DNA of 64,000 bases from an uncultured Gammaproteobacteria bacterium. GTDB taxonomy: Bacteria > Patescibacteriota > Microgenomatia > UBA8517 > JACQJR01. The notes beneath the pieces were generated by a model. The model searched no databases. It saw only the letters and a list, made by a program, of their open reading frames with translations, and had not been told where the DNA came from. The stretch is taken from assembly GCA_964442455.1 (NCBI GenBank), contig CAYTZB010000001.1, forward strand, positions 85,910 through 149,909. Reading direction: 5' to 3'. Each line of letters begins with the position of its first letter. Within the stretch, counting starts at the first letter, position 1. A program made the translations under genes and the position numbers. Positions 3,047-45,901 of this stretch are shown piece after piece.

Positions 3047-3595
3047 ATGAGAGAGAAAACATACAAGGCTGAGGCGATTATCTTGGCCCGTCGTAATATA
3101 GGGGAGGCGGACAGGCTTCTTACGGTCTTTTCGAAGCATAATGGAAAGTTACGGATCATTGCAAAAGGAGTAAGGCGACCGACGAGTAGAAAACGAGGGT
3201 CTTTAGAGCTCTTTGCCTGCGTGCGACTTTTTCTGGTAAAAGGAAAAACGTTTGATATTGTGACCGAAGTAGAATTAAAAGAGAATTTTAATTCGTGGAG
3301 GGAGAGTTTGGTGCGTGTGGGTGTTGCCTACCATCTTGCAGAGGTGGTTAGTAAATTGACCAGAGAAGATCAAGAAAATAAAGTTGTTTATGGTATCCTC
3401 TTTAACGCTTTCTCACGATTGCACATAATAAATTATTGGCAATTGCATCATTTTATTTCGGAATTTAAGCGCCAGATTTTAGTCGAGCTTGGGTTTTTAG
3501 GAAGAAGTAAGGAGGAGAAAGAGCTTGATGACTATATCGAAGAGCTAACTCAGAGTAAACTCCGCACAAAGAGATTTTTACGCTCCCTTTCCTAA
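3047..3595 (+). CDS. recO: DNA repair protein RecO
   Basis: The N-terminal OB-fold signature AIILARRNIGEADRLLTVFSKHNGKLRIIAKGVRRPTSRKRGSLELF matches RecO. ATG 3047 is preferred over TTG 3035. Confidence 0.7.
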   Translation: MREKTYKAEAIILARRNIGEADRLLTVFSKHNGKLRIIAKGVRRPTSRKRGSLELFACVRLFLVKGKTFDIVTEVELKENFNSWRESLVRVGVAYHLAEVVSKLTREDQENKVVYGILFNAFSRLHIINYWQLHHFISEFKRQILVELGFLGRSKEEKELDDYIEELTQSKLRTKRFLRSLS

Positions 3596-3676
3596 GTTTG
3601 TCTAACTTCTATATGAGAACAGAATTTGTCATCCTTCTATTTTTTTAATTTCTTTTCTGATATCATAAACTCAGGT

Positions 3677-4978: not shown

Positions 4979-5006
4979 ATAGTAAATAGTAAATGATACA
5001 TACCTC

Positions 5007-22469: not shown

Positions 22470-23585
22470 ATGAAAAAAAATATTGTTTTGAAAACACAGC
22501 AGAGTAAAGTAGATAAAGTACTTTTAATTTTACCTATAGTCTTGACAATAGTTGGTCTTGTCATGATGACCAACGCGTCAGTTGCCCAAGCGCAAAATTT
22601 ATTCGGTGATAAGTTTTTTTTCGCAAAGCAACAGCTTATGTGGGCGGCCCTTGGCCTCGTAGGTTTTTTTATTGCCGCACGAATTCCCTTTTCTCTCTGG
22701 GAAAAAATTGCAACCCCTCTTTTCTGGCTTACTGTTGTTGCGCTAGCGCTCGTTCTTGTGCCAGCAGTTGGTACCATGGCGCTTGGTGCACGACGCTGGA
22801 TAACACTTGGACAGTTTAGCCTCCAGCCGGCAGAGATTGCAAAACTTACCTCTATTCTTTACTTTTCTCGCTTATTCACGAAACAGCAGGTTTTAGGTTG
22901 GACTCATGTGTTTACTTTTCTTTTCGCAGTAACCCTCGCTGGTGGTCTGATAGTTGTAGAACCTGATTTGGGTACCAGTGTTGTCATTGGTGTGACTTCG
23001 TTTGTACTGTTCTTTGTAAGTGGAGTACCGCTAACCCTTTTTATTGCACTTATCCCTCTCCTTGTGGGAGTTACGTTGCTGCTCTCCCTTTCTTCTTCTT
23101 ATCGAAAACAGCGTCTCCTTTCTTTTCTTTCCGGTGTGTTTGATCCGTTCCAGGCTTCCTATCATGTAAAGCAGGTCCTGCTTGCTGTTGCGTCTGGGGG
23201 CTTATTTGGAGTAGGATTAGGGGAGAGCAGACAAAAGTTTCTCTTCTTGCCAGAGGCAGCAACTGATTCAATTTTTGCAGTTATTGCTGAAGAAACAGGG
23301 TTTGTTGGATCGCTCTTTGTTATCTTCCTGTTCGTTGTTCTTGTCGCACGTATATTTGTTGTTGCACAGGGAGTGGGGGTTGACTTTGCGAAGTTGGTAG
23401 CGGTAGGCATTGGGACATGGATTGGAGTGCAGGCACTGGTTAATATTGCGGCAATGACTGCCACCCTTCCCTTAACCGGTATTCCACTCCCCTTTTTCTC
23501 GTATGGTGGGTCGTCTCTTTTTGTAACCCTTTTCGCACTGGGGATTGTGGTAAATATTTCAAAAATGAGGATGCTCAAGCGATGA
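22470..23585 (+). CDS. ftsW: SEDS-family peptidoglycan glycosyltransferase FtsW
   Basis: Roughly 10 TM helices. SEDS motifs QPAEIAKL, EPDLGT, LPEAATDSIFAVIAEETGF and PLPFFSYGGSS are present. Conserved dcw position. Confidence 0.85.
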   Translation: MKKNIVLKTQQSKVDKVLLILPIVLTIVGLVMMTNASVAQAQNLFGDKFFFAKQQLMWAALGLVGFFIAARIPFSLWEKIATPLFWLTVVALALVLVPAVGTMALGARRWITLGQFSLQPAEIAKLTSILYFSRLFTKQQVLGWTHVFTFLFAVTLAGGLIVVEPDLGTSVVIGVTSFVLFFVSGVPLTLFIALIPLLVGVTLLLSLSSSYRKQRLLSFLSGVFDPFQASYHVKQVLLAVASGGLFGVGLGESRQKFLFLPEAATDSIFAVIAEETGFVGSLFVIFLFVVLVARIFVVAQGVGVDFAKLVAVGIGTWIGVQALVNIAAMTATLPLTGIPLPFFSYGGSSLFVTLFALGIVVNISKMRMLKR

Positions 23586-25541: not shown

Positions 25542-26810
25542 ATGGCTAAAGGAAAAGTTATTGCCGGAATAGATATTGGTTCTTCCAAAGTTGCGACCGT
25601 CATAGGCAGTGCAAATCCAGAGGAAGAAGTACTACAAGTTTTGGGAGTGGCGTCTGTTCCTGCTCCGCCTGATGGAATTAAGAAGGGGCAAATTGTTGAT
25701 ATTGAGAAAGCCTCTGGGGCGGTTGTAGCTTCGGTTGAGAAAGCAGAACGGATGGCGGGGTTTGCACTCGATAACGTCGTCGTTGTTATTAATGGTGGAC
25801 ATATTCAGGGTCAAAACTCTCATGGGGTTGTTGCAATATCCTCCCCGGAGGGAGAGATAGAAGGAAGTGATGTTGAGCGGGTCATTGATGCCGCGCGTGC
25901 GATATCTCTTCCAGCTGGTCGCGAAGTTATTCATGTGCTCCCTTGTGAGTTTATTGTAGATGGGGAGAAAGGGATAAAGGATCCGGTGGGAATGAGTGGG
26001 GTGCGGCTTGAGGTAGAAGCGCATATTGTAACCGCGTCAACAACTGCCATTCGCAATTTAACCAAGTGTGTAAGTGAGGTGGGAGCGAGAATTTCCGGTG
26101 TGGTGTTCTCGGGGTTTGCCGCCGCCGCATCGGTGCTTTCTGATACCGAACGGGAACTAGGAGTCGTGTTAATTGACCTTGGAGCGGGGACGACCTCAAT
26201 TGCCGTTTTCACCGATGGCGCACTGGTTCACTCGCGAGTGCTTCCTATTGGTTCAAAAAATATTACCAATGATTTAGCTATAGGACTGCGCACCTCGCTT
26301 GAGAGTGCTGAGAAGATTAAAATTTCTCTCTCCGCAGCAAGTAAAAAAGACAAAGAGGAAGACGAGATAGACGTGTCGGGGTTGGGTGTTGATGGAGGGG
26401 AACGGACTGTGTCAAAAAGGACCCTTTCAGAGGGGATTATACGGCCTAGACTCAACGAAATTTGGAGTATGGTAGGGATGGAGCTCAAGGCCACGGGTCT
26501 TGGAGGGAGAACCCCGGCAGGAGTGGTGATTACCGGAGGGGGAGCGTTAACGGTAGGAGCGGTTGAGTCAGCACGGCGAATCTTAGCCCTTCCTGTTCGG
26601 GTGGGAATTCCCACCGGTATTTCGGGATTGGTTGACGATGTCTCAACGCCCGCATTTGCCGCAACGGTTGGGGCGGTTGCGTGGGCAGCACAAAACGTTG
26701 CCCCTCCTTCGGGTTTTCGTATTGGTCAGTTCACCCGTCCCTTCGAAAGCCTCCCTGTAAAAGGAGTGGTAGGCAAGGTGGTTGAGGTTATAAAAGGATT
26801 GCTGCCATAA
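25542..26810 (+). CDS. ftsA: Cell division protein FtsA
   Basis: Actin-like ATPase motifs GIDIGSSKV and LIDLGAGTTSIAVF, with the characteristic C-terminal region. Confidence 0.9.
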   Translation: MAKGKVIAGIDIGSSKVATVIGSANPEEEVLQVLGVASVPAPPDGIKKGQIVDIEKASGAVVASVEKAERMAGFALDNVVVVINGGHIQGQNSHGVVAISSPEGEIEGSDVERVIDAARAISLPAGREVIHVLPCEFIVDGEKGIKDPVGMSGVRLEVEAHIVTASTTAIRNLTKCVSEVGARISGVVFSGFAAAASVLSDTERELGVVLIDLGAGTTSIAVFTDGALVHSRVLPIGSKNITNDLAIGLRTSLESAEKIKISLSAASKKDKEEDEIDVSGLGVDGGERTVSKRTLSEGIIRPRLNEIWSMVGMELKATGLGGRTPAGVVITGGGALTVGAVESARRILALPVRVGIPTGISGLVDDVSTPAFAATVGAVAWAAQNVAPPSGFRIGQFTRPFESLPVKGVVGKVVEVIKGLLP

Positions 26811-26823
26811 AAGTTCATGGTTG

Positions 26824-26849
26824 AAGCGCGTCAGAAAACGCCGCTTTTC
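26824..26849 (+). terminator. Weak hairpin/T-tract after ftsA
   Basis: AAGCGCGT-CAGAAA-ACGCCGCTT forms an 8-bp stem with one bulge, followed by TTCG. The T-tract is short. Confidence 0.3.
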
Positions 26850-27021
26850 GATTAGCATACGAGGAATCAAAATTTTTTACTCCGTTGTCCCCTTGAGAAC
26901 TGCTAAAAATTTATTCACCTAAAACCTGAGGATATTTCTCGACTATAGGCTCATTTTGTGCTAAAATACGCTTGAAATGGTAGAAAAAGAAATCTTTTTG
27001 GTATAATTAAGGCAAAATTTT

Positions 27022-28794
27022 ATGATCGCTGAACGTCAAGAAAATAAAGCCGTTCAATTGAACGGTCGAGATTGGTTATCCCCTGAGGTTGATGATATTG
27101 CACGTCAAGCAATTAGAGATATGGTGCCGCAGAGATCTGAGGATGGTAATGGTTTGCATTCACAGGAAGAGTTAAATAATGCATTATCAATTTCTTCCTT
27201 TCGTAGAAATGGTCTCCTTGGAATGTTACATATAAAATTTGATGGCGATATTGAGCAAGCTTTAAGATTTGCATATCCTGAGATTTTTAGAAAACCACTT
27301 TTACATCTTGATGAACCTCATTATGGTGATCCTTTTCAAGAAACATGGAGGGAAAGAGAACGCGAAATTGAAGGCAGAATAATATCGACGATGGAAAGGA
27401 GTAGGTTAGGTCATATCTATTTCTACGATAATGAAGTTATTGATAGTGATCAAAAAGCAAGGAAACTTATGAAATTGGGTAGACGGGTCGAGCGCCATGT
27501 AAACCGAAGAAATACCCGTGAACGTCATCACGAAAAAATAGACGTTGACGAATGGCAGGGAAGAGAAAATGAAGATTTTCAAAGAGCAATAGTTCGTTTT
27601 CTAAAACTTGGTGATAGCGTCGCAGGTTTTCTCGGCAGCAACGATACTGAAATTCCACGTTCTATTTTAAATCGAATTGGACAACAAGGAGTATTTTATA
27701 TGATAGGTCGCAGAAATTATCCTTATAACGAACTCGCCGGTTCATTTCCTAACGCAAATAATAGAGGAATCGAGGACGAACTTTTAGCAAGAGCTCTTGA
27801 GTTGGGAGAGTCTTTAATATTGAACAACTACGATCAAGAACAAATAAAAAAAACACTTAACGGTCATAAAATCTATCCAGTTGTCTACAGACCTCCCAAT
27901 CTTCCTGAAGAAATTTCTCGACATTCTTTAAATGCTTTCATTGTGAGCGATCGAGTAAGGGAAATTTTGGAAGAATTTAGGGAAGATTTCCTATGGGCAA
28001 TAGATTCAGCTTTAAAACAAGGTGGATATTTAATTTTTCGAGAAAACGCCAGGCAACAGACAAATATTGAGTACTATGGCCAAGATCTTTGGTCTAGCAG
28101 ATATCAAAGAGTAGGGACGGGAACGAAATCGGCCCAATTAATGATTTTTCGTAAAGTTGCTACAGGTAATTCTATGGTTAGTATTTCTCAAACAGTTTCA
28201 GAAAGTTCTCAATCGACTGAAAATGAAGAGGAATTTGGAGTGTGTACTATTGAACATAAGTGGGAATTTGAAAACGGAGAAGGGGCTGATAAGCAAATTT
28301 ACGCAGCACTTAAGCATGTTATTGAACAAAAACATAGATTAAACGGGGAAGTTACAGAAGCTCAACAGATAGACGAGTTACTAAAAGGAACGTTGAGCGT
28401 AAGTTGGTTTAGGAAAACTGGGCTTTTGCCAATCTTATTTAGTCGGTTTGGCGGAAGTGTTGAAAAAGCAGCGGAGTTTGTTATAGAACATAACCAAGCA
28501 GGAAGAACTCCTCCAACTATTATCCAAAGATCTCCTGAAGGGGCAAAATCCTCTTATAATCTCTACGATCTTGCCAAAGAATTGGGAGTTAGGATAGATG
28601 TTATTAGAAAAACTCTAAATAATGCTGGTATAAAAGGAGTACAGTCACAAAGAAATAAAGGGAATTTTCACCCCCAAACAAGTAGAATGCAATTTTCTTA
28701 TCAGGAGTTTTTAACATTAAGAGATGTATTACGGAGGGATTTAAATGTAGAAAAGGCTACCAAGGAAAGGAGCGATAATGCAGAGAGAATTTGA
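27022..28794 (+). CDS. Hypothetical 590-aa protein with two copies of a ~75-aa module shared with the SNF2-sigma protein, plus a C-terminal HTH-like segment
   Basis: Module copies lie at nt 27073-27287 and 28261-28493 (W..(F/L)..., L(S/N)xSxF(R/Q)(R/K)xGLL...FxGxxxxAxxF). The C-terminus YNLYDLAKELGVRIDVIRKTLNNAGIKG is HTH-like. There is a 17-nt overlap with the next ORF. Confidence 0.7.
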   Translation: MIAERQENKAVQLNGRDWLSPEVDDIARQAIRDMVPQRSEDGNGLHSQEELNNALSISSFRRNGLLGMLHIKFDGDIEQALRFAYPEIFRKPLLHLDEPHYGDPFQETWREREREIEGRIISTMERSRLGHIYFYDNEVIDSDQKARKLMKLGRRVERHVNRRNTRERHHEKIDVDEWQGRENEDFQRAIVRFLKLGDSVAGFLGSNDTEIPRSILNRIGQQGVFYMIGRRNYPYNELAGSFPNANNRGIEDELLARALELGESLILNNYDQEQIKKTLNGHKIYPVVYRPPNLPEEISRHSLNAFIVSDRVREILEEFREDFLWAIDSALKQGGYLIFRENARQQTNIEYYGQDLWSSRYQRVGTGTKSAQLMIFRKVATGNSMVSISQTVSESSQSTENEEEFGVCTIEHKWEFENGEGADKQIYAALKHVIEQKHRLNGEVTEAQQIDELLKGTLSVSWFRKTGLLPILFSRFGGSVEKAAEFVIEHNQAGRTPPTIIQRSPEGAKSSYNLYDLAKELGVRIDVIRKTLNNAGIKGVQSQRNKGNFHPQTSRMQFSYQEFLTLRDVLRRDLNVEKATKERSDNAERI

Positions 28795-31700
28795 ATCTCA
28801 AAGAACGATAGAAATAACACCGGGCAAATCTCCAACTAATGAAGTTATAGAAAGGGTAGGTAGAGAAATAACTCACTGTGATTTGCTCCATATGTGGAAT
28901 TTTGAGGTGGATGGGAGGAACCAGCAAGAGATAGATGAAGAACTTCAGGAAGCAATAAGGCATGTTGTAACGTATACACATACCATCAATGGTGCAGAGT
29001 ATGGAGGCTACCTACCTGATGAGACACTTGAAGAAAAATTGAATTTAGCGTGGTTTCAGAAAGTGGGACTGTTAAAACCAGTGGCGTTGCAGTTTAAGGG
29101 TGAAATTGCAGATGTTGTTCGGTTTGCGTGGCCTGAAGGATTTCACCAGGAAGAGCAAGAGAGAGTCCAGGCGTTTCGTTTGAGACCAGATACAATTGAA
29201 TTTTGGCAGGAATTAAAGAAAGATCTAGAAGGAATACAAACGCCCAAAAATATGGCACTTTCAACTTTTATGATGTATTACGATCCTCGAACAAAAAGGC
29301 AATCTTATCTTGAGGGAGGTAAATATATATACCTTTACGGCCTCTTTTTTCAGGATACATTAGCTGAAGAGTCGATTCATAACCCGGTTGATTATTTAAG
29401 CTCCCGATTCAATCCACCTCGTGATAATCAAGAATTTATTGATCTAGTCAAGGAAACACGTGAGCTTGCGGAGATAAAGCTTCGTAAACCCTATGGAAGT
29501 GTTATGGACATACAAGAAAGGCTTGCAGATCCTAGTTTTTTGGAAGAGTTTGTAATAGATTTGAACGAATATACTGAAGATTTCACTTTTGCTAACTTTA
29601 TGCAAGGCTGGTTGAATTATACAACTCCCAATGGTGACATCATACGGTGGAGTGCTAGAGGAAAGTACAGAGAGCTTCTCAATGATCTTTTAGCACGAAG
29701 GTGGATTGCACAACTGGGCGAAAATGCCGGTTCTGAATCTACACCAAAAAAACCCGCTGAAATATTTTATGAAGCTGCTCCGCAGAACCTCAAACTTTTA
29801 CTTTTGGCGAAATTTCCGAAGGATTTTTCCCATCTTACACTCGAAAGTTTGGAACAGAGTCAGGTAGTGTCAGATGAAGTTCGTGCAATACTTGAAGAGA
29901 CCAGCTTACTGGGAGTTGATAGTCAAGATCGTATTTTAGAGACGCTTGGGAATTATATCTTAGCTAAACATAAAAATAATGAAAGTCTTAATTATCTTGA
30001 TGGTCAACGAATTAAGACGATTTTACTTCAAGTTTCTCAACAAATTCTTCCCGCAGTTATTAGAAGAGCTGCTTCTTCCAAAACGGAGAGCGTTTTAACC
30101 GATAGTCGCATAGTTCCTACAGTTTTGAGCGAAGCAAACTCAGAGAATCAAGAAGTTGCTGACTCTGCCCAAGAGTTGTTGGAATCTCTTAGGGAGGCGT
30201 ACTACTTTCCCCTGCTTAAAAGTTTACTTTACAAACCAACAGCGCTTTTTTGGACTTCATATTTAACTGAGCACCCCGAAGAGGTAACAGTTCCTCCTGC
30301 CATGTTAATTAATTTCCTTGAAAAGCATTTAAAAGGAAGAGTAGAAGAAATTGCTCTTCAAGGCGATCAAAAAGAGGTTCTTGGTTATTTAAGTCAAGAG
30401 GTACTTCCTAATGTCTATCGCCACTTTGCTGAAGTTGCTACCTTTGCCCAGACAATTGCTCACTTTAGAACAAAGGATATTGAAGGGAAACCTCAACATT
30501 TACTTTTTCACCAAGTAGAAGGAATTAAGAAATTGATCGAAGATAAAGGCGGAATTGTATCAGATGAACCTGGTACTGGCAAAACACTTATACTTGCGCT
30601 TTCTGCACTTAATCTGATGGACAGAAGCGGAATTGTTGGACGAGGTACACCTGGGCGCGCTTTAGTAGTTGGGACAAAATCAGTAATAGATAATTGGGAA
30701 AGTGAACTGGATGCACATATACGAACAGACTATATAGATGTTGTAAATGTCAACTTCACCAATCAGAAAGATAGACAAGTGAGTAGAGATGAGTTACAAG
30801 CCCGGTTACGTGAGCTAGAAAGATTACTTCGAAACCCTAGACATCAGAGACAAATGGTATTGGTCAATTACGATTTGTTCAGACACCCTACATTTAAAAA
30901 GATTTTGGGATCTTATCCGTTTGATTCTGTGATAGTTGATGAGGCACATAACGTTAAATCTCGGTTTCTTGAATCAATTAATACCTATGAGAAAAGCGAT
31001 GATTTACGGAGTAGCACGAGTGTAGCTAAAAGAACAAGGGGTCTTTATAGCTACATCAGAACTAGTCCTGACCTTTCTGTATTTTTTGCCACGAGTACAC
31101 CTTATGTTAAAGAGCTTGTCGAACCTCTTATTATGGCGCATTTAGTTAACGAACAACTTGTACCTAGAGAAAGGGTACAACAACTTATGGAAGATACTGT
31201 TGGAACTCACCAAGTATTAAGACAAGTGATGATTCGCAGAAAGAAAGAGGAGATAGCTGACTTACCACCTAAAGAAACGGTAGTAGTTCCGATTGATCTT
31301 ACTTTGCTTTCCGAGGAGGAGAAGCAAGAGTTTAAAGCAATAGCACAAGAGATTATGGAGAACGAAAATTTTGCTGCACGGTTTTATTCAATGCTTTCGC
31401 TTGAAGGTTTGGCCAAATATCCCTGGTTGACAGAAAAGGTTAAAGAGCTTATTTCAGATGGTCGCAAGGTAATTATCTTCACCCCCTTTGTGGTTGGAGA
31501 AAATCGATATACTGCGCCGATTAGTACCGCACGAATAGCAGCAAAATTAATGGGTGCAGGAATTCCAATCAACTCAGTTGCTGTTTTGGACGGAAGTTTA
31601 GATGAAGGAGAACGAATTAGTGTGCAAGGACGTTTTCGTAACCAGCGAGATCCGAAAGTTTTAGTTGGTAATTACATTACCGCAGGAGAGTCAATAACAC

Positions 31701-34700
31701 TCAACTCACCCACCAATAGAGCTACGGAAGTAATTATCTTTGTGGGGCCAAATACAATTACTCGCTATATTCAAGGGGTTGACCGAAGCCACAGAATTGG
31801 GCAAACAGAAAAAGTTACCATTCACATACCATATGTTACTGGAGATTTGCTTGGACGAGGTGAGACCTACGACGAAGCAGTAATTAAACGACTTATGGAT
31901 GAACTGGTAGTTTTTGGAGCTGTCGTCGACGGGCGATTCTTTATGGAGCCAAAAGATATCTATCAATCAATTATTCAAACAGATAGAGCAAAACCGAGAG
32001 GTAGTGTTGAATTTACACGAGAGCATCGACAACGATCAAGAGAGAGGCGACGTGGTCCTTATACACCTCGGTTGCCCGGAGAACCAACTCCAAGAGTAAT
32101 GATAAGTGAAGATGAGGTTATCGATTTTGGATGGATGCAAAATATTCGTGAGGTTGTTACTCGTGAGAGCGAGTCTGAACAGGATATAGTGAGAATGTAT
32201 CTAGAGCAGATAGGACAATACCCACTATTTAATCCGGATAATCCAAATCACGAAAGATTGGCGTTCGATTATTTTAAAAGTGACAGAACCCTTGATGAAT
32301 TAAAGATAGATTCAGAATTTCTTTCAATGATTAATCCGCGAGATAGAGAAGATTTTGGACGTGTTCTGACTGATAGCCAAAGTATTCAAGATTTAATTAT
32401 TAACTGTAATCTCCGCTTGGTAGTTTCAGTAGCTCGTCAACGTCAAGGTCGCGGCTTACCCCTTTTGGATTTAATACAAGAAGGAACATTTGGCTTAATG
32501 CATGCGGTTGAACTCTTCGAACCCGAGCGAGGAAATAAATTTTCAACATACGCAACGTGGTGGATACGCCAAAGTATAAACAGAGCGATCATGAATTCTT
32601 CGCAGACAATCCGATTGCCAGTTCATATGTATGAAAGAATTGGTTTGGCTCGGAGATTTGCAAGAGAATTTGAAGCTACAAATGGTCGCACCCCAAAAGT
32701 GAGTGAGCTGCGCGAGTTAGTTTTAACTCAAACAAAGTTTTCCGAAAGTGAAGTTGACTCTGTAATCGAAACCATTGCTTCAGGAGTTATGCAAATGGGC
32801 ACTTTGGACTTTGAGATTGGGGAAGATGGAGAAGATACATTATATGATGTCGTTGCCGACAAGAGAATGGATGTTGAAGCAACTGTTTTGGAAGAAACAG
32901 AGGATGATGAGCTGAATACTGAGGTAAAGAGGGCTCTGAAAGAGAATTTGGATGAAAGAGAAAGAAGAATAATAGAGTTAAGATTCGGTTTGGGTGAAAC
33001 AAGAGAGAGAACTCTAGAAGAAGTCGGACAAGAATTTGGATTGACACGAGAACGTGTTAGACAGATTCAGGAAAGAAGTTTAGGCAAACTTAGTAGAGAC
33101 AAACAATTACGCGCTCGGTGGGAAGGCGATGCTCCGAGTTTTGTGTATCATACGAGTGCAGAGCAAGCAGCCATCAGGTTAGGATTATTCAATAAGAAGC
33201 AAAGTTATGTCGAGAAAGTTGTCGCAGAGTTACCTCCCCATCTTCAGAGTGTGCTTAATCAACGTATTCTCAAAGCAGCATCTTTGATAAATGGAGATGC
33301 ACAAAATGGGACTTCCGAAGTGGATCAAAGTTATCAATTTACACTTGCACGACTTGCAGTATGGGAGAAGTTAGGGACACTTTATCCAGACGATTTAACT
33401 GACTCACGGCAACGTCGTGAAATATATGGAAAAGATTTTGGGCCATATTTTGACCTATCGCTTATGAAACGGTTGTATGAGCGAAGGGATGGTAGAGTTA
33501 GACTGTTAGATAATCGAGTGTTATCGCACTTTTTTGGATTTGGCGATGGTCAGAAACCCCTCTTAAGTGTAGAGAAAGTTACTCAAGAGCTAGGAATTCC
33601 ACAGGATACAGTTACCGCGGGTCTTCATAAGGGGTTGCAGGTACTTGAAGCTCCACCAGAGAAGAAAACCAGAGCAGAAGAGCTCAGCAGAGAACACAGC
33701 ATTGTTGCACAGGCGTTTCGCAATCAAGAGATTTGGGATCAAATTCCTGATAGAGAAAAAAGCATATTAACACTCTATTTCATACGTGGTGGCGATCAAC
33801 AAGTATTAAAAGAGAATTTTTCGAGAATTTTCGGGATTTCTCTGCCTGAAGTAGATGCACGAATAAACGCTGCAGTAGAGTTAACTGAACGACTTTTAAC
33901 AGAAATTCAGGCTAAACCAGAACGTCAACGAAGGGTAACAAGAGGAGAACTTAGAGATATGGTTGAAGGATTATTGAAAGAGTATCCTTGGTTGAGCAAT
34001 AGCGAAGTAACAGAGCATCTTTCAACAAAACTAAAACAAGATTTAAGCAAAGCTCGTGTTGACCAAGCGAGGAAGAGCTTGGTTGCCCTTGAGAGAGTAG
34101 AGTCACGGCGTGGAAAATTAGATATACTTGACTCAAGAGTCGAAGCATTACTACTCCAAGGATTAAAACCCCAGCAAATTGCTGAGAGTTTGGTTCAATC
34201 AGAAAAAAGAGTTATTGCTTCTATAAGAAGATTGATTAGCACAGGAAATCTTGATACCCAACTTATTCAGTGGAGAAACGATGGCCTTTCAAAGGAAGAA
34301 ATTGCTGAAAGAATAGGAAGTTCAGCTGTTACCATAGGGAGAAGGCTCCGGGTACATGTTGAATCTGGTGCTCTACCTTTCCATCCTCGTGATCCTCGGA
34401 CAGTTGATGATTCTGGAGTTACCGAGCACGTCAGAAACCTAGACGGTATGGTTGAGTCATTGATTCTTCAAGATCCAAAAATAAAAACTAAAGAAATTAT
34501 TGCTGCATTGGAACCTACAGTAGGAAAATACATGGCGGAATTAACAATCCGGAGAGCAAAGAAGCGGCTGGTAGCTGCAGGGAGAATACCTTCTCATTTA
34601 TTTAATCTTACCCATGAGGAAGCAGTAGCTTTAGATCAACAAGTAGAAGAATTGGTAAAAAACGGAAATCTCTCTTATAAAGAGATAGCTGCTGCATTGA

Positions 34701-34951
34701 ATCAGCCAATCAGCAGAATTAGAAATTCTAAAGAAAGACTTGTCAAGACTCGCAGAATTGAGCCTAATCCAAAGTATGTTGACAAAGGAGCTAGTGCAGC
34801 TCTAGAGGAGTACTTATCAACACATCATGGTGATGAAATTAATTTATCAGAGTTTGCGCGCTCTATTGGTATTAGCCGCGAACGCGCAAGCCAACTCTAC
34901 AAGCGGTTAACCAATTCGCAGCTTAAGGAATTAATGACGCGGAGGAAGTAA
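28778..34951 (+). CDS. Giant fusion protein: N-terminal shared module + SNF2-family ATPase + complete primary-type sigma-70 factor + C-terminal array of ~8 HTH-like units
   Basis: SNF2 motifs: SDEPGTGKT (nt ~30563), [11 protein letters not shown] (~30938), [17 protein letters not shown] (~31781). Sigma motifs: region 1.2 [16 protein letters not shown] (~32182), region 2 [49 protein letters not shown], region 4 [13 protein letters not shown]...[17 protein letters not shown]. It is a single uninterrupted ORF. Confidence 0.88.
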   Translation: [2057 protein letters not shown]

Positions 34952-34995
34952 GAAAGTTGCTTTTACGCTTCTTGTAAGCTATACTACACACCGAT

Positions 34996-36351
34996 ATGGC
35001 AATAGAGAAACTTTTTTCAAGAATGAGGCAAGATGCCCTCGATAGCGCTTCTGGCCTTTCTGAAGAGCAAGCACATTTATTGCGTGAGGGAAAGGTAGAA
35101 GATGCTGAACAGAGAATGAACCAGGTGAAAATCGAGATAGCTAAAGCAAAAAAGGTTAATAGGATCGTTGCTGATATGTTGGATATTTTACGTGCAGCAG
35201 GTTTTGAACAACCTCCTGCTGAGTATCTTGAGCAAGTAGTAGCAAGAGAAGTATCAACTCCCGAACCCGTTTATGTAAAAGGGCAAAAATCGGGTCTTTT
35301 TAGTTTCCTCGCTCGATTATTTCCTTCAAAACAAGAACAAATATTTATTCCTGGACGACCCATTTCTCCTCTTAATCTTGTCGAAGAAGTTATGGGATCA
35401 AGACCAGTTGTAGAGGAGACAAGCGAAGAAGTGAAAGAGATTGGAGATATAGATAGAGAAGGAGAGGAAGTGGTAGCGGCAGTACCAACTCCTCCAATTG
35501 AAGCCAAAAGAGTGAGAGGTGATTTTGTGGAGCGCGAAGAAAAATTAGTATACGCAGCTCTTGCTGTTAATCCTAATAGAGATGGATTTCAATTTGAATC
35601 ATGGAGGAGTGTGTGGCGCCAGGCGTTTTCTGATGCCTTCGAGAATATTACCGATGAAAGAGAGCGTGACGATAAAGAAAAAAATTCGCAGATAGCCTCA
35701 TATTCTGCCCGCAGTGCTATTATTGTCAAACTTCAAAGAGTCAAAACTAATGCTCAGGACATTCCCCCTAAAGTAGCGAGTTTTCTTGAATGGGTTAAAA
35801 CTCAACCAGAATACGTTAATCTAAGTGTTGATGATATCTCCCTAATTATACAAAGACAAATAACCTTTGATGAAATTCGTCAAAAGGCAAGCCAAGCAGT
35901 AAATATCTTGCAAATAGAATCGCAACCCACAGAAGAGCAAGCGGTTTCTGGGGAACAAACTGAGTCAGTTCCACAACTGCCCTCGATTCAAGCATCAGAA
36001 AGCAGGGCAACAGAGCCACAAACGCTACAGTTAACAGGGCCAGAGCTTCACTTGCTTGCGCAGAAGTTACTTCAGGCAGCGCCAGCAGTATTAGAAAGAA
36101 CAGGAATAAGAATTCACACTGCAGATAGAGAAGAGATAGGTGGAATTATGGGGCGGCTCGCAAGTTCACCAGAAACTCTTCGTGCAAGCGAAACTTCTCT
36201 TGAAAGTCTCACACAGAAACTTGCTGCATATCTAAAAGACAAAGAAAAAGTATTTATGGAAAATGTCAGCAATGAGGATGCTCAGTATTTGATTACGTTT
36301 GTTGCGGGTATCAGTTCTGAAGACCTATTAAAAGAGTTTTTAAGTAGTTGA
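34996..36351 (+). CDS. Hypothetical acidic 451-aa protein (third gene of the ftsA-ftsZ insert)
   Basis: It has its own TTGCTT-17-TATACT promoter (34957-34985), an N-terminal coiled-coil-like segment and E/Q/S-rich linkers. No family recognised. Confidence 0.6.
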   Translation: MAIEKLFSRMRQDALDSASGLSEEQAHLLREGKVEDAEQRMNQVKIEIAKAKKVNRIVADMLDILRAAGFEQPPAEYLEQVVAREVSTPEPVYVKGQKSGLFSFLARLFPSKQEQIFIPGRPISPLNLVEEVMGSRPVVEETSEEVKEIGDIDREGEEVVAAVPTPPIEAKRVRGDFVEREEKLVYAALAVNPNRDGFQFESWRSVWRQAFSDAFENITDERERDDKEKNSQIASYSARSAIIVKLQRVKTNAQDIPPKVASFLEWVKTQPEYVNLSVDDISLIIQRQITFDEIRQKASQAVNILQIESQPTEEQAVSGEQTESVPQLPSIQASESRATEPQTLQLTGPELHLLAQKLLQAAPAVLERTGIRIHTADREEIGGIMGRLASSPETLRASETSLESLTQKLAAYLKDKEKVFMENVSNEDAQYLITFVAGISSEDLLKEFLSS

Positions 36352-36407
36352 CGCTTCTTTCCTCTCACCCAGAGATTCCCAGATGGCGATACGGCTCACT
36401 CGACCCC

Positions 36408-36436
36408 TTGACAACTCCTGAAAATTTATCCACAAT
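36408..36436 (+). promoter_or_regulatory. Candidate ftsZ promoter
   Basis: TTGACA (36408-36413), a 17-nt spacer, then CACAAT (36431-36436). The predicted ~150-nt 5'UTR contains element E4. Confidence 0.55.
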
Positions 36437-36450
36437 AGGCCACAAGTGAA

Positions 36451-36590
36451 ATTAACCTAATTAACCTAATTGCTCTAATTGATCTAAATTTTGAAGATTT
36501 GTAGTTTAAAAATTGGGATTTATTTAGAAATTAGAATAATTAGAAATAAGCAGAGCTTGTTTCTCGCAAGCTCGAAATTAGAAATTTTTA
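36451..36590. repeat. Imperfect long palindrome of CTAATT / AATTAG phased units (element E4, homolog of E1) plus an internal 7-bp hairpin
   Basis: Left arm: ATTAACCTAATTAACCTAATTGCTCTAATTGATCTAAATT. Right arm: TTTAGAAATTAGAATAATTAGAAAT...GAAATTAGAAATT. The hairpin is GAGCTTG-TTTCTCG-CAAGCTC. Confidence 0.65.
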
Positions 36591-36592
36591 AA

Positions 36593-37720
36593 ATGGCTCT
36601 TGTTAAACCAGATACCACGCGGTTGGCAAAAATTCGAGTAATTGGGGTTGGTGGCGGTGGGGGGAACGCAATTAACTCCATGATCTCCCAAGATAAGATT
36701 TCCGGAGTTGAGTTCATTGCCGTTAATACAGATGCACAAGTCCTTCTCTCAAACCTCGCGTCCACAAAAGTTCAAGTTGGTGAAAAATTGACGCGCGGGT
36801 TGGGTGTTGGGGGAAATCATGAGCTTGGGAAACAAGCAGCGGAGGAATCAAGAGAAAAAATTAAAGAACTGCTTCTTGACTCTGATATGGTATTTATTAC
36901 TGCAGGTATGGGTGGAGGGACTGGAACTGGGGCTGCACCGATTATTGCCGAGGTCGCGCGTGAGGTGGGGGCGTTGACGATTGCTATTGTTACCAAACCT
37001 TTTGCCTTTGAAGGTGCACGGCGCGCAGTAGTAGGAGAAGAGGGAATTGAAGCGCTTAAAGGAAAGGTTGATACGCTCATTATCATTCCCAATCAGCGGT
37101 TGATGGATGTCATTGACCGGAAGGTGACGCTACTTGATGCGTTCCGCCTGGCCGACTCGGTGCTCTCGCAAGGTGTACAAGGAATTTCTGAAATTATCAC
37201 CCAACCGGGACTTATTAACGTTGACTTTGCGGATGTAAAAGCAATTATGACCCAAGCAGGCTCAGCGCTTCTTGGCATTGGTACGGGAGTTGGTGAAGCG
37301 CGGGCACAAATGGCAGCACGGGCAGCAATTTCCTCTCCTCTTCTTGACTTATCAATCGAGGGTGCAAAGGGAGTGTTGTTTAATATCTCGGGTGGCCCGG
37401 ACTTGACTATGGCGGAGGTTGATGAGGCAGCGCGAATTATCGCCGAGCATTCCGATGCAGACGCAAACATTATTTTTGGTGCATCAATTGACCAACGGTT
37501 GTCCGATCAAGTACGTATTACAGTTATTGCGACCGGTTTTGATGAGGCGCGGGCACGACTTGCGCAAATAACCCAAACCGCAGTCAAACCTCAACCAACC
37601 CTTGAGTCGACAGAAGAGACTCGTGGGGAAAACGAGGAGGAAGAAAAGGCAGAAGAACCCAAGGATGATGAGTTTGGAGAACGCTTCGAAATACCAGCGT
37701 TTCTAAGACAGGGCCGCTAG
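36593..37720 (+). CDS. ftsZ: Cell division GTPase FtsZ
   Basis: GVGGGGGNAIN, tubulin signature GGGTGTGAAPIIA, NTDAQ, and the C-terminal conserved peptide FEIPAFLRQGR. ATG 36593 is preferred; the ORF-track TTG 36491 extension runs through the palindromic repeat. Confidence 0.92.
   Translation: MALVKPDTTRLAKIRVIGVGGGGGNAINSMISQDKISGVEFIAVNTDAQVLLSNLASTKVQVGEKLTRGLGVGGNHELGKQAAEESREKIKELLLDSDMVFITAGMGGGTGTGAAPIIAEVAREVGALTIAIVTKPFAFEGARRAVVGEEGIEALKGKVDTLIIIPNQRLMDVIDRKVTLLDAFRLADSVLSQGVQGISEIITQPGLINVDFADVKAIMTQAGSALLGIGTGVGEARAQMAARAAISSPLLDLSIEGAKGVLFNISGGPDLTMAEVDEAARIIAEHSDADANIIFGASIDQRLSDQVRITVIATGFDEARARLAQITQTAVKPQPTLESTEETRGENEEEEKAEEPKDDEFGERFEIPAFLRQGR
37669..37707 (+). repeat. Direct repeat copy 1 (last 39 nt of the ftsZ body before its final 13 nt)
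   Basis: TGAGTTTGGAGAACGCTTCGAAATACCAGCGTTTCTAAG is identical to 40512-40550. Confidence 0.9.
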
Positions 37721-37781
37721 CTTCTAGGATAAAACCTATAATATTTCTTCTACTCTTTAGTTGATATGGTATACTATCGGC

Positions 37782-40514
37782 ATGATTGCAACAACCGAAA
37801 GAGCTATACCAATAGGATTGACTGGCGATATCTCAAAGGATGGAATTCTTTCTCCAGGAACACAAATAGAGCTTGATCGTCTCCAAACTAATGCGGCTGA
37901 TGCTTGCATGGAATATCTAGATAGAATGGCACCAGATGCACCATTTCCTCTAGTTTTTATGGCAACTGGCGTCGGTAAGGGAAAAATTATTCACGAACTG
38001 ATTAAAAGGCAAAAAGCTCGAAAACAAGACTCGAAGATTTTGTTAGTTACAGGTACAAAAATTGTTTTAGTTGATCAGACTGATCAAGCTTTAACTGCTT
38101 ATCAGCAAGAACAAAATGATTTTGATATGGATGAGGATCTTGAACTGGACCAGATGGATTTTGAAAAAGAAGCGTTTGGAGAATACACATTTGATAAGTA
38201 TGGTAATCCGGATGTGGATGTTCAACTGGCAACAATTCAAAGAATTCAAAGGCAGCATAAAGAGGGGAAACTTAATGCGAATGATTTCGATCTACTAATA
38301 GTAGATGAAGTACATAATGTAGGAACCCAGAATAGGTTTAATGCAATTGATAACTTTCAAAGGGTTGTTGGTTTTACTGCTACTCCATATCGCTACACTG
38401 GCCCAATGAAAACACCACAAAGTTATGGATTTGAAATAATTACTTCGCTGTCCCTTCCCGAAGCACAAGAAAGGAAAATTCTTCCGCCTCTTTATGCACT
38501 GCAGATTAATACATCAGAATTACTAAAAGACGAACAAATACCTACCACGAGAACTGGAAAGATCGATTATTCGAAACTCGAGAAAGTTCTCAAGGCACAT
38601 CCGGAATTAAGGGAATTCATTGCGAATAGAGTTGCACCAATTATCAATTTTGAAGGGAGAAGTTATAAAACTGTTGTAACTGTTAACTTTGTGTGGGAAG
38701 CCCTGGAACTTGCCTGGTTATTTAGGGATAAAGGAATTAAGGTTGGTTTAGCAGTTAATCAATATGCCGCAAAGAATATTGATACCAAAGAAATACCAGC
38801 ATTGGACACGATTAGGAGATATAAACTGCCGGAAGGCGATCCAGAAAGCCTCCAGGTTTTAATTTCTCCTTATGTTATTTCGGAAGGTTTTGATGCTCCG
38901 GCAACAGAGATTTTAGTTTGGGCGTCTCCAACTGATTCATATCTGCGATACACGCAATATACTGGACGGCTGGCCAGAAGACATTTTGGTAAAGCTTATG
39001 GACTAGTTGTTGATTGTTTATACCAAACAAGCCAGTATGGTTGGACCTACAACTTTGCAATGTGGATGAAGGGATATGTACAAGAGTTAGAACCTGGACT
39101 TTTATATCTTGGCCCGATGTCAGAAATCAAAGATGTTGAAGTACTTAGACGCATACACGAGATTTCGGATAATATCCATATTCGTGAATTACAAAGGGAA
39201 GGAATACTACCTATTCAAGAAAACGACTTGCCGCTTTCACAAAATTGGATTCGACCTCTTTTCCAGGGAGATTGGCTTAGATTAACTTCTTTAATCGATG
39301 AGATTAAAGAAGAGTATAGAATCACTGGTGAGGAGGTATTTAATCAACTATTCACAACCAGGCTTAGTGGTAATCAACTTGTGCTCGTATGTACAAATAG
39401 AGATATTTTTATTCAACGGCTAATAGACAAAGGTGCTAAACCAAAGGTTGAAAAACCACGAGAGGGAGAGATTCCTTTGACTCAGATTAATCTACCCAAA
39501 CTCTTTGTTGGTAATTTTGAAGATACTTTGAGACCTATGCTTAATTCAATAATGGCGCGTATTAAAAATGAAGATCCAGAGGAATACCAGCGACTCTTTG
39601 CCAAACGAATGCAGGGTAGGGAAATCTATGTTTGCACAAATAAGGATAGACTTATTCAACTTATGGTTGAAGCTGGCGCAAAACTCAGGCCAGGGACTAA
39701 GGTAGCAAAAGAGAAAATGCAAACTAGCGATTTTGCTCTTACAGCAGATAATCTCGGAGAAACTTTTATTACTGGAAGAACAAAGAAGATAAGAGAAGTA
39801 ATAAGGAAAATAAAAGAAAGTTTGCCAGAAGGGGACTCTTTATTTACTTTTAGAGAATACAAGTATGCCGATGTTGAGGTAGTAACTGATTTCGATAGAT
39901 TTGTGCAATTAATGCTACAAACTGGAGTCAAACTCAGACCAAAAAATTTTATTCCAATTCAACCAAATGATATACAATTAAGTAGGGATTTATTAAAAAC
40001 ATTTTTAGGGCAATGGCGTGAAATTTCTACAACAGCGCAGCGAGCTAAAGAAAGACTTGAAAGACAATTCCCCGATGACTGTGATACTCTTTTTGTAGTT
40101 AGGACAACGAGAGTCCAAAATAAACCTCTTTGGATTGATGTATGTACAGACAGGTCTAAATTTATAAAAGCAATGGTAGAGGAAGGAGCTCGATTGAGAG
40201 ATCAGGCAGATATTAACCTTCTACCTATTCAAGAAAATGATATTGTTTTGAGCTTTGAATCTTTCTATTCGATTTCTACTACAAACTGGAGTAAATTAAA
40301 AGTTGTAATTAGACGAATTAAAGATAGGATAAAAGAGGAAATGCCAGAGGAATTCGAAAAGTTATTTGTAAAAAGGAAAAACCGTCGGGGGAAAAGTGAG
40401 GTCTGTACAGATAGAGGTTTATTTATTAAGTGGCTTGAAGAAGAGGGTGTTAAGCTAAGGCAAATTCCGCTAGTTGTGCGACATAGAAGTAGTAACTCTA
40501 ATCGTAACTCTTGA
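37782..40514 (+). CDS. SF2 helicase (ResIII/DEAD-like N-terminal ATPase + helicase-C) with five tandem ~84-aa C-terminal repeats
   Basis: Motif I FMATGVGKGK, motif II LLIVDEVHNV, motif III GFTATP, motif VI QYTGRLARR. TGgTATACT lies 6 nt before ATG 37782. The repeats span nt ~39204-40465. Confidence 0.85.
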   Translation: MIATTERAIPIGLTGDISKDGILSPGTQIELDRLQTNAADACMEYLDRMAPDAPFPLVFMATGVGKGKIIHELIKRQKARKQDSKILLVTGTKIVLVDQTDQALTAYQQEQNDFDMDEDLELDQMDFEKEAFGEYTFDKYGNPDVDVQLATIQRIQRQHKEGKLNANDFDLLIVDEVHNVGTQNRFNAIDNFQRVVGFTATPYRYTGPMKTPQSYGFEIITSLSLPEAQERKILPPLYALQINTSELLKDEQIPTTRTGKIDYSKLEKVLKAHPELREFIANRVAPIINFEGRSYKTVVTVNFVWEALELAWLFRDKGIKVGLAVNQYAAKNIDTKEIPALDTIRRYKLPEGDPESLQVLISPYVISEGFDAPATEILVWASPTDSYLRYTQYTGRLARRHFGKAYGLVVDCLYQTSQYGWTYNFAMWMKGYVQELEPGLLYLGPMSEIKDVEVLRRIHEISDNIHIRELQREGILPIQENDLPLSQNWIRPLFQGDWLRLTSLIDEIKEEYRITGEEVFNQLFTTRLSGNQLVLVCTNRDIFIQRLIDKGAKPKVEKPREGEIPLTQINLPKLFVGNFEDTLRPMLNSIMARIKNEDPEEYQRLFAKRMQGREIYVCTNKDRLIQLMVEAGAKLRPGTKVAKEKMQTSDFALTADNLGETFITGRTKKIREVIRKIKESLPEGDSLFTFREYKYADVEVVTDFDRFVQLMLQTGVKLRPKNFIPIQPNDIQLSRDLLKTFLGQWREISTTAQRAKERLERQFPDDCDTLFVVRTTRVQNKPLWIDVCTDRSKFIKAMVEEGARLRDQADINLLPIQENDIVLSFESFYSISTTNWSKLKVVIRRIKDRIKEEMPEEFEKLFVKRKNRRGKSEVCTDRGLFIKWLEEEGVKLRQIPLVVRHRSSNSNRNS

Positions 40515-44877: not shown

Positions 44878-44878
44878 C

Positions 44879-45901
44879 ATGCGTATTGATGGTGCATTAT
44901 TGGGTGCGGTAATACTCCTTCTTGTAGTGGGCAATACTATTCTTCTCTCTGTTGAGCCGCGGCTTTTTCCGCTCCAATTTTTGTATATCGGTGCGGCCGT
45001 AGTTGTATTTTTCCTTGTTGCTAGAGTGGACGCTGCCGTATTGCGTGCCTTTGCACCCCTTGGGTATTGGCTAGTGATAATTTTTTTGGCAGTTACGTTA
45101 GTTATTGGAGTAATAAGTCATGGAGCAGTGAGATGGTTACCAATAGGACCTGTTACGGTGCAACCGTCTGAATTTGCAAAACCCGCTATTGCTTTAATGA
45201 CTGCGTGGCTCCTATCAGGAAATATTAAAAATAGCTTTTTAGCTTCTTTGTTGGTCAGCTTTTTAGCTTCTTTGTTGGTATTTATTCAACCAGATTTCGG
45301 AACCGCTGTGATTCTGGGTGTATCATGGTTGGGAGCTGTCTTAGCAAGCGGAGTATCGTTTAAAACTGTTTTTAGGTTTTTAATTTTTTTCATTCTTTTA
45401 ATTCCTTTAGGTTGGTTTATTCTAGCACCGTACCAGCGAGAAAGAATAACTTCATTTTTAAACCCGACGAGCGACCCCGCAGGTGCTGCGTACCAAGGAC
45501 GACAAGCAATGATTGCTGCCGGTTCGGGAGGACTCCTTGGCCGAGGGTTGGGACAGGGAAGTCAAACACAGCTTGCATTTTTACCAGCGCGCTCAACTGA
45601 CTTTGCATTCGCAAGCGTGGGAGAGGAGCTTGGATTCGTGGGGATGGCGCTCGTTTTGGTAGGATTTTTTGTGGTTTTTTTGAGGATTGTAGGGGTGTTA
45701 AGGGAAGCGCGCGAGCCGTTTGTGAAAGCTGCACTTGGTGGAATTTTTCTTTTTCTTTTCGCCCAAACAACGGTGAATATTGCCATGAATCTTGGTATGC
45801 TTCCCATCGCCGGTGTGCCGCTACCCCTTATTTCTGCCGGCGGCTCGGCGCTTGTCTCAACGATGTTAAGCTTAGGGATTGTCGTGGCTCTTCGGAAGTA
45901 G
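44879..45901 (+). CDS. rodA: SEDS-family protein RodA (second FtsW/RodA paralog)
   Basis: QPSEFAKP, QPDFGT, LPARSTDFAFASVGEELGF and PLPLISAGGSA motifs are present. It contains a 24-bp in-frame tandem duplication. Confidence 0.8.
   Translation: MRIDGALLGAVILLLVVGNTILLSVEPRLFPLQFLYIGAAVVVFFLVARVDAAVLRAFAPLGYWLVIIFLAVTLVIGVISHGAVRWLPIGPVTVQPSEFAKPAIALMTAWLLSGNIKNSFLASLLVSFLASLLVFIQPDFGTAVILGVSWLGAVLASGVSFKTVFRFLIFFILLIPLGWFILAPYQRERITSFLNPTSDPAGAAYQGRQAMIAAGSGGLLGRGLGQGSQTQLAFLPARSTDFAFASVGEELGFVGMALVLVGFFVVFLRIVGVLREAREPFVKAALGGIFLFLFAQTTVNIAMNLGMLPIAGVPLPLISAGGSALVSTMLSLGIVVALRK
45233..45280 (+). repeat. 24-bp tandem duplication inside rodA (SFLASLLV x2)
   Basis: AGCTTTTTAGCTTCTTTGTTGGTC followed by AGCTTTTTAGCTTCTTTGTTGGTA (23/24 identical). 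Confidence 0.9.

Follow-up and report, generated by a model that had tools for sequence, protein, structure and literature searches.

INTRODUCTION

Initiation by sigma-70-type factors is the textbook case of ATP-independent promoter opening, before which region 1.1 of the factor occupies the downstream DNA channel. Parallels that use ATP at initiation are TFIIH/XPB, which opens the promoter for RNA polymerase II (Pol II), and the AAA+ activators that work with sigma-54. Mot1/BTAF1, in which a helical N-terminal region is followed by a C-terminal SNF2 domain, dissociates the TATA-binding protein (TBP), and such translocases act on flanking duplex DNA. Here we analyze a stretch of 64,000 nucleotides from contig CAYTZB010000001.1 of assembly GCA_964442455.1 (hereafter the window), which encodes a protein of 2,057 residues (aa) carrying an SNF2 ATPase and a group-1-like sigma-70 domain, together with two partner genes, up590 upstream and dn451 downstream. 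Like the Mot1–TBP and TFIIH–XPB systems, this fusion would anchor a translocase of helicase superfamily 2 (SF2) or the SNF2 family to a promoter-recognition factor; in contrast to it, however, those systems are non-covalent, belong to the TBP/Pol II machinery and have no detected homology to the fusion beyond the generic SNF2 core.

To our knowledge, no bacterial SNF2 enzyme other than RapA is known to act on RNA polymerase (RNAP). RapA binds core RNAP at a site overlapping that of sigma70, competes with sigma70 for the core, and uses ATP to strip post-termination core from DNA (PMC10334767). Both RapA and the fusion are SNF2-family ATPases functionally linked to bacterial RNAP, whereas RapA is a free protein competing with sigma and the motor of the fusion is covalently joined to it. 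Two anti-phage proteins also bear comparison. MzaA, the sigma-70-family protein of the MZA system, is an example of a sigma domain joined to other modules, and ZorD is the SNF2 nuclease of Zorya, whose likeness to the fusion is limited to the SNF2 N-lobe.

No account of an SNF2–sigma fusion turned up in full-text literature searches, in candidate comparative-genomics papers or in the literature on RapA, in keeping with the novelty supposed in a preliminary description of the window. The public database entry of the window protein has no name or accession attached. Both components belong to well-known families, and their combination is conserved and unexpected for sigma-70-type initiation. It raises the question of what an ATP-driven DNA motor does when permanently tied to a promoter-recognition subunit, and suggests that ATP hydrolysis may be wired directly to starting or resetting transcription.

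RESULTS AND DISCUSSION

One reading frame joins an SNF2 ATPase to a sigma-70 domain

The preliminary description had read an uninterrupted SNF2–sigma polypeptide from the letters of the window and had quoted diagnostic peptides from both halves. The listing of open reading frames (ORFs) and the stop-free translation bear this out, giving a single ORF with an ATG start, 2,057 codons plus the stop and zero internal stops, in which every quoted peptide was located where it had been placed.

28778..34951, forward strand: SNF2–sigma fusion gene, recognized by translation and Pfam, with Shine–Dalgarno-like AAGGAAAGGAG ahead of the ATG

The sequence AAGGAAAGGAG makes a good Shine–Dalgarno site at the annotated start. 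As had been anticipated, Pfam domains of both halves lie in the one protein, with SNF2-rel_dom, Helicase_C, Sigma70_r2 and Sigma70_r4 all above cutoff. The DNA of the SNF2–sigma junction (32.0–32.2 kb) holds neither a homopolymer run nor an internal Shine–Dalgarno site with a start codon able to yield a separate sigma. The frameshift or hidden stop that could have made two genes of it was not found there, and 20 other proteins have the fusion too. A Logan contig assembled separately (run SRR12113420) encodes a protein identical to the window fusion, with the caveat that this contig and the NCBI contig were possibly built from the same reads. Two proteins from other runs, at 44–47% identity, have the same architecture and are continuous through the junction.

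When 1.84 billion cluster representatives were searched exhaustively with HMMER, a profile spanning SNF2 to sigma gave approximately 20 clusters (50% identity) with the same fusion, and 18 further proteins from this search were confirmed to hold both the SNF2 and the sigma part. Together with the three close proteins, these make 21 fusion proteins with the N-terminal domain, SNF2 and sigma in one chain, at 31–47% identity to the window protein, and the alignment, drawn from many samples, runs unbroken across the junction in all 21. The SNF2–sigma fusion is genuine and conserved, and is not an assembly artefact. Word-indexed homolog searches returned only the three closest proteins, both with the full protein and with a 28-member alignment, and none with the N-terminal alignment, so that the size of the family rests on the exhaustive search of representatives.

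A first scan of GTDB genomes with a three-sequence N-terminal/SNF2 alignment gave no match, the source genome itself included. Among GTDB species representatives there are at least six family loci, of which at least three keep the fusion ORF whole and one other, L005, has it split; named loci with the fused gene come from Ca. Gottesmanbacteria (MFJN01) and Ca. Woesebacteria (JBDTWD01). An additional fused locus lies on one JGI metagenome contig. Three loci (L004, L007 and L008) are labelled 'uncultured Gammaproteobacteria' despite family content of the candidate phyla radiation (CPR), and this label, like 'Woesearchaeota', is a doubtful one given by pipeline or binning. A sister group (proteins P0026–P0030 and locus L007) has the middle N-terminal region (N-mid) and SNF2 with no detectable sigma; a search for sigma remnants in these sister proteins gave only a weak region-4-like match in P0026.

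Three observations on individual sources may be added. L005 (MFJN01000014.1, labelled Ca. Gottesmanbacteria) and L006 (DUGB01000140.1, labelled Ca. Woesearchaeota archaeon, UBA10204) have fusion-flanking ORFs of equal lengths (280 and 529 aa) with identical or near-identical hidden Markov model (HMM) scores; this likeness in ORF lengths and HMM scores suggests a mis-binned contig. The fusion gene of L005 is split near its 5ʹ end into fragments 1135–1488 and 1583–6193, a possible frameshift or pseudogene. Viral contigs and phage and plasmid records hold only generic SNF2 proteins, with 22–25% identity over the ATPase core, and a phage or plasmid origin was rejected.

The SNF2 motor is divergent and predicted to be active

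The motor half contains the following features.

30458..32032, forward strand: SNF2 ATPase core (residues 561–1085; Pfam SNF2-rel_dom and Helicase_C)
30560-30586, forward strand: SNF2 motif I, GTGKT (SDEPGTGKT, residues 595–603)
30929-30961, forward strand: SNF2 motif II, DEAH (residues 718–728)
31085-31111, forward strand: SNF2 motif III, STP
31658-31702, forward strand: SNF2 motif V (residues 961–975)
31766-31804, forward strand: SNF2 motif VI, DRxHRxGQ (residues 997–1009)

A further SNF2 peptide that had been quoted lies at residues 575–586. The ATPase had been called complete, and this holds: both lobes exceed their Pfam gathering scores, with SNF2-rel_dom at residues 588–729 (4.7e-16, 59.2 bits against a cutoff of 24.9) and Helicase_C at residues 886–1008 (1.4e-6, 29.0 bits against 23.5), and the catalytic motifs are invariant across the family. 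Among 28 family members, G599, G601, K602, T603, D721, E722, H724, T774 and P775 are invariant, and R1003, H1005, R1006, G1008 and Q1009 are nearly so (at least 90% conserved). The SNF2 core thus looks catalytically intact, if very divergent, and is predicted to be active.

The nearest SNF2 cores, all of them weak matches, are ZorD-like, archaeal Rad54-like, ISWI, INO80 and HELLS/DDM1 proteins. Identity with RapA was rejected, as the RapA model NF003426 gave 25.7 bits against a cutoff of 576 over a match of only 65 residues; RapA is absent from the matches of the motor among sequences of solved structures (PDB), and the fusion lacks the RapA-type N-terminal domain. Of the parallel with RapA that had been drawn, the functional analogy stands and orthology does not, and as an analogy only, RapA appears to be the best functional model for a sigma-tethered SNF2 enzyme. 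ZorD itself was also rejected as an identity (35 bits against a cutoff of 1500, generic SNF2 N-lobe only, with no ZorA, ZorB or ZorC among the neighbours).

The sigma domain keeps the determinants of promoter recognition

Regions 1.2 to 4.2 of a sigma-70 factor follow the motor.

32177..33112, forward strand: group-1-like sigma-70 domain, regions 1.2–4.2 (residues 1134–1445)
32183-32239, forward strand: sigma region 1.2 (peptide quoted earlier at residues 1136–1151)
32399-32590, forward strand: sigma region 2 (stretch quoted earlier at residues 1211–1271)
32633-32866, forward strand: sigma region 3
32945-33091, forward strand: sigma region 4 (stretch quoted earlier at residues 1393–1438)

The signature TIRLPVHM lies at residues 1277–1284. 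Pfam recognizes Sigma70_r2 at residues 1208–1271 (2.9e-18) and Sigma70_r4 at residues 1390–1438 (8.6e-24); Sigma70_r3 (residues 1286–1363, 4.8e-5) and Sigma70_r1_2 (residues 1136–1154, 7.4e-3) were matched just below their cutoffs, and to this extent the anticipated domain list held only in part. The claim of a full sigma-70 was upheld by end-to-end alignment of regions 1.2–4.2 with solved primary sigmas, with approximately 180 bits for Mycobacterium smegmatis and Thermus SigA, and by intact determinants.

Compared with RpoD and SigA, the fusion has regions 1.2, 2, 3 and 4 in the same order, with conserved residues for core binding, melting, and recognition of the extended -10 and the -35 element. 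It differs in having an N-terminal domain, SNF2 and linker of approximately 1,130 aa in place of region 1.1 and a 610-aa array of helix-turn-helix (HTH) units after region 4. The family was aligned with Escherichia coli sigma70, whose residue numbering is used here. In this alignment the window sigma keeps DLIQEG..GLM (core binding), the region-2 stretch for -10 recognition and melting, IRLPVHMYE (extended -10) and TRERVRQ (-35), and equivalents of Y430, W433, W434, Q437, H455, E458, R584, E585 and R588 are present in the window protein and most members. The sigma half looks functional and, judged by these residues, would be equipped to bind core and to read and melt -35/extended -10 promoters.

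Its assignment as a primary, RpoD-type factor, which the preliminary description had proposed, was sustained as far as group-1-like. The domain scores below every curated RpoD/SigA equivalog cutoff (NF004208 RpoD, 220 against 555 bits; TIGR02393, 217 against 354; TIGR02997, 241 against 384.5), so we call it group-1-like without certifying it as RpoD. By neighbour joining, in a tree whose long branches make it indicative only, the sigma falls in a CPR-specific clade apart from canonical RpoD/SigA, with P0039 as its closest sigma relative. MzaA was tried as an identity and rejected: NCBIfam gave 243 bits against a cutoff of 800 (PADLOC 160), only positions 470–705 of the 726-position profile were matched, and no MzaB–E genes are adjacent.

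Family-specific modules surround the motor and the sigma core

The remaining parts were mapped with HMMs built in this analysis from the three closest proteins.

28877..29152, forward strand: N-motif, a small alpha/beta domain (residues 34–125; own HMM)
29180..30457, forward strand: N-mid region, family-specific and all-helical (residues 135–560)
32033..32176, forward strand: linker of 48 aa with 9 K/R, 9 D/E and 5 P (residues 1086–1133)
33113..33937, forward strand: C-extensions 1 and 2, two region-4-like HTH units (residues 1446–1720)
33938..34948, forward strand: C-terminal tail of approximately six further HTH or winged-helix modules resembling sigma region 4 (residues 1721–2057)

The family-specific helical N-terminal region spans 560 aa in total. 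Its N-motif of approximately 90 aa has no Pfam family, carries the signature ..LN/S.(A/S)WF.K.GLL...F.G.....FA.PE, and has a pLDDT of approximately 80–90 in an AlphaFold2 (AF2) model. Copies of it occur twice in up590 (at approximately 27094–27300 and 28220–28480), once at the opening of the fusion protein, and once directly ahead of the stand-alone sigma P0042; judged by eye, P0062 has the same arrangement of N-motif before sigma. The N-motif appears to be a module specific to sigma association in this CPR clade. The N-mid region has neither a Pfam family nor a similar solved fold, and holds an internal duplication of the unit FW.E...DL...F..F..P....GKY.

The linker, part of which had been quoted earlier and lies at residues 1084–1105, varies in length and sequence across the family and lies in the place of sigma region 1.1. 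At E<=0.1, Pfam matched no region 1.1 family, and the N-terminal module and linker stand there, as in the earlier proposal that some 1,130 aa replace this region.

On the other side of the sigma core, the C-extension opens with the clade signature W.(E).D.PSF.Y..SAE.AA..LGLF and is common to the stand-alone sigmas P0039, P0037 (start only) and P0095 (in part, C-extension 2); P0051 has a similar start, by eye. The tail matches the Pfam families Sigma70_r4 (6.2e-8) and HTH_24 (1.6e-6), AF2 renders the tail as a string of modules of three to four helices, and its weak Foldseek list consists mostly of sigma factors and tandem winged helices. C-extension and tail together form the 610-aa C-terminal array, with approximately eight sigma-4-like HTH modules. 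Neither this array nor the domains of the first 560 aa had been noted in the preliminary description.

The fusion is the middle gene of a conserved three-gene cassette

The fusion gene is flanked by two genes on the same strand.

27022..28794, forward strand: up590, the upstream partner (590 aa), with no Pfam family, overlapping the fusion start by 17 nt
34996..36351, forward strand: dn451, the downstream partner (451 aa), with no Pfam family

The gene up590 has homologs immediately ahead of the fusion, often with an overlap into its start, in L002, L003, L005, L009 (weak), L087 and L168, and also upstream of the motor-less sigma P0039 in L084. Homologs of dn451 lie directly downstream in L002, L003, L004 and L168, and downstream after one intervening minus-strand ORF in L005 and L006; the stand-alone sigmas P0037 and P0039 end in a fused region homologous to dn451. 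The genes up590, fusion and dn451 form a conserved three-gene cassette, and the partners are tied to the sigma clade by Rosetta-stone domain fusions. Because P0039 has the partners without the motor, and P0026–P0030 and L007 have the motor without sigma, the core unit appears to be up590, sigma and dn451; the N-domain/SNF2 motor would be a module that some lineages fuse to sigma and others encode on its own.

In up590, a strongly conserved stretch (SLD..(I/V)E.DRFS...E..KE..L.E.D.ALKPGGYLIFRENA..Q..IEYYGQ.L, found also in the upstream genes of L003, L084, L087 and L168) recalls the C-terminal half of the class I methyltransferase fold, with no recognisable S-adenosylmethionine-binding motif and no Pfam match. 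Its C-terminus carries an HTH-like segment, FYT..DLAKEL....VRK.L.

Candidate promoter elements were found ahead of up590.

26999..27007, forward strand: candidate extended -10 element TGGTATAAT, 14 nt ahead of the start codon of up590
26959-26967, forward strand: second candidate extended -10 element TGCTAAAAT

The element TGGTATAAT is found again in L168, ahead of the gene resembling up590, and in L087 TGGTAAAAT takes its place, the TGGTATAAT/TGGTAAAAT candidates lying 8–32 nt before the start codon of the first gene of the cassette. If these candidates are promoters, the short spacing implies that in the window and in L087 the mRNA has a very short leader or almost none. A scan of the region for consensus promoters and terminators gave matches that were not enriched over shuffled sequences, and the TGGTATAAT candidate is therefore a lead only.

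Related sigmas of the CPR clade have gained other modules

The gene of P0039, the closest sigma relative, follows immediately on an up590 homolog; the protein has the C-extension and HTH tail and ends in a dn451-like part, without an SNF2 module. With P0037, P0042, P0089 and P0095 it shares with the fusion a signature between regions 1.2 and 2.1, and several sigmas of the clade also share the post-region-4 extension; all of them, in contrast to the fusion, are without the N-mid and SNF2 module. In P0089, a helicase of the ResIII/PF18766 SWI2_SNF2 type precedes a sigma of this CPR clade, which makes the protein a second, independent helicase–sigma fusion. The CPR-specific sigma clade has repeatedly gained modules, including two kinds of helicase, an apparent extracytoplasmic-function (ECF)-type sigma, HTH arrays and partner domains.

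The gene of P0089 lies at 10001–13264 of L086 (ENA ERZ28653421 scaffold_5, 1.14 Mb), in a region resembling an integrative and conjugative element (ICE), with a resolvase, a TraG-like coupling protein, a TrbC pilin, FtsK, Mrr, SRAP, a Peptidase_S24 protein (LexA/UmuD-type) and an IMS-family polymerase as neighbours. P0095 (947 aa) has an ECF-like sigma (region 2/4-type, by eye) ahead of a complete CPR-clade group-1-like sigma and part of the C-extension, and is a possible sigma–sigma tandem fusion.

Proposed role of the tethered motor

We favour, at a little better than even chances, a working multi-domain initiation factor whose tethered motor remodels or recycles sigma–RNAP–DNA complexes. 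The sigma part would dock on core RNAP and recognise canonical -35/extended -10 promoters, with the SNF2 motor tethered through a flexible charged linker where the autoinhibitory region 1.1 normally sits. The motor would engage promoter-flanking duplex DNA and spend ATP on remodelling the complex, pulling sigma, holoenzyme or post-termination core off DNA for recycling, or clearing the promoter, and fusion would ensure that it acts in cis on the complex formed by its own sigma. Because sigma keeps its melting residues, relatives run sigma and partners without a motor, and the sister group has the motor without sigma, we regard the motor as probably an accessory and not a melting engine. By analogy with RapA on RNAP or Mot1 on TBP, its most likely role would be dissociation and recycling or promoter clearance. 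The context is in keeping with this, the chromosomal surroundings being of a housekeeping kind (the division and cell wall (dcw) cluster in the window, zwf/gnd in L004).

Several points weigh on the other side. The motor is not a RapA ortholog and the N-terminal region has no recognisable RNAP- or DNA-binding fold, which makes the recycling role an analogy. The ATPase activity, DNA binding, core binding and promoter specificity we infer from sequence. The tail of approximately eight HTH modules suggests an additional DNA specificity that the favoured model does not explain. Moreover, the melting residues of sigma are lost in P0017 and P0018, and P0031/L008 has only a degenerate sigma-2 and a weak region-4-like remnant left; sigma may be no more than an anchor in these lineages, or a relic.

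The main rival to a recycling motor is obligatory ATP-driven promoter opening or escape, in which the motor would pump or twist flanking duplex into RNAP in the manner of XPB. Such a role would suit a motor that is placed exactly where region 1.1 would be and has strictly conserved catalytic motifs, and the unrelated SF2 translocase on a sigma of the same clade in P0089 means that translocase–sigma coupling arose at least twice, a support that is tempered by the ICE-like region of P0089. We nevertheless hold it unlikely, as the sigma domain retains a complete ATP-independent melting apparatus (the Y430, W433 and W434 equivalents and region 1.2), and the closest sigma relative, P0039, has the same partner genes and no motor.

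A conserved set of residues for reading the -10, extended -10 and -35 elements, in the window protein and most members, speaks against sigma being an anchor only, as an anchor needs none of them. According to that improbable explanation, the protein would be an RNAP-associated SNF2 enzyme for recycling or for removing roadblocks, and a separate stand-alone sigma would do the housekeeping. The sister group (P0026–P0030, L007), with N-domain and SNF2 without sigma, would fit, as would the losses in P0017, P0018 and P0031/L008, the patchy distribution over the few GTDB loci (L005 being split) and the overlap of the RapA and sigma70 sites on core (PMC10334767).

We consider it very unlikely that the protein belongs to an MzaA-like or ZorD-like defence system or mobile element that happened to insert between ftsA and ftsZ. 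MzaA (sigma part) and ZorD (SNF2 part) are the best NCBIfam/PADLOC matches, the cassette is slightly lower in GC than its flanks and interrupts the dcw cluster at a position that is not conserved, L009 is near a type I restriction-modification (R-M) system, and the P0089 fusion is in its ICE-like region; however, among the neighbours PADLOC matches only an unrelated helicase behind ftsZ, the window cassette comes with neither an integrase nor Zor or Mza partner genes, and other family loci lie among metabolic genes. The chance that adjacent SNF2 and rpoD genes were merely joined by a frameshift or a chimeric contig is negligible and this explanation already effectively refuted, with nothing in its favour save the possible shared reads behind the NCBI and Logan contigs, and against it the continuous junction alignment in 21 proteins, the GTDB genomes, the JGI metagenome, the junction without a homopolymer and the identical ORF in a second assembly.

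Is the fusion a housekeeping sigma factor?

Whether the fusion, with up590 and dn451, is the principal housekeeping sigma of a Microgenomates clade is a further question, and we consider this rather doubtful. For it are the group-1-like architecture with intact determinants, the core-gene neighbourhood, and the nearest sigmas among the searched representatives, which are CPR-type stand-alone sigmas of ordinary size; no other sigma was found in the 64-kb window or in the other family flanks that were scanned. Against it are the patchy distribution, the variable genomic position, and the motor-less and sigma-degenerate relatives. As relatives carry sigma without the motor (P0039/L084) and members have lost melting residues or sigma (P0017, P0018, P0031), the fusion as such is probably not universally essential.

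If the fusion were the housekeeping factor, routine initiation or holoenzyme turnover in minimal-genome bacteria would be intrinsically coupled to an SNF2 translocase, which would change the picture of their transcription cycle. It would then be a third way of putting ATP hydrolysis into promoter complexes, beside sigma-54 with its AAA+ activators and TFIIH/XPB or Mot1, and the first ATP-coupled case within the sigma-70 family. The fusion protein also offers a self-contained reagent for mechanistic study, and its sigma clade is a sign of unexplored transcription biology in uncultured bacteria that form a very large part of the bacterial tree.

Genomic surroundings of the cassette

The gene order in the dcw cluster of the window is murD, ftsW, murG, an FtsQ-like ORF, ftsA, up590, fusion, dn451 and ftsZ. 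Within 25542–37720, the cassette of approximately 9.5 kb between ftsA and ftsZ breaks an otherwise canonical cluster, which also holds genes for a penicillin-binding protein and murE/F-type ligases, and murA. The ftsA–ftsZ position is shared by no other family locus; L004 adjoins zwf and gnd, and L009 adjoins the type I R-M system. The GC content of the cassette (0.385–0.41) is slightly under that of its flanks (approximately 0.43–0.45).

The next gene after ftsZ (37761–40514) encodes a ResIII/DEAD helicase of 917 aa, which PADLOC finds similar to PbeA and to type IV methyl-directed restriction enzymes. It lies in the lowest-GC stretch of the neighbourhood (0.371) and has 26% identity over 265 aa to the helicase part of P0089. 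The window also contains DUF4012 and has a compact one-strand gene layout; with the nearest named relatives among the family loci, these features assign it to a Microgenomates-type bacterium of the CPR. Two FtsW/RodA-family paralogs are encoded at 22470–23585 and 44858–45901, and the 64 kb hold four Mur-ligase-type genes, a full peptidoglycan and division toolkit in a small-genome bacterium.

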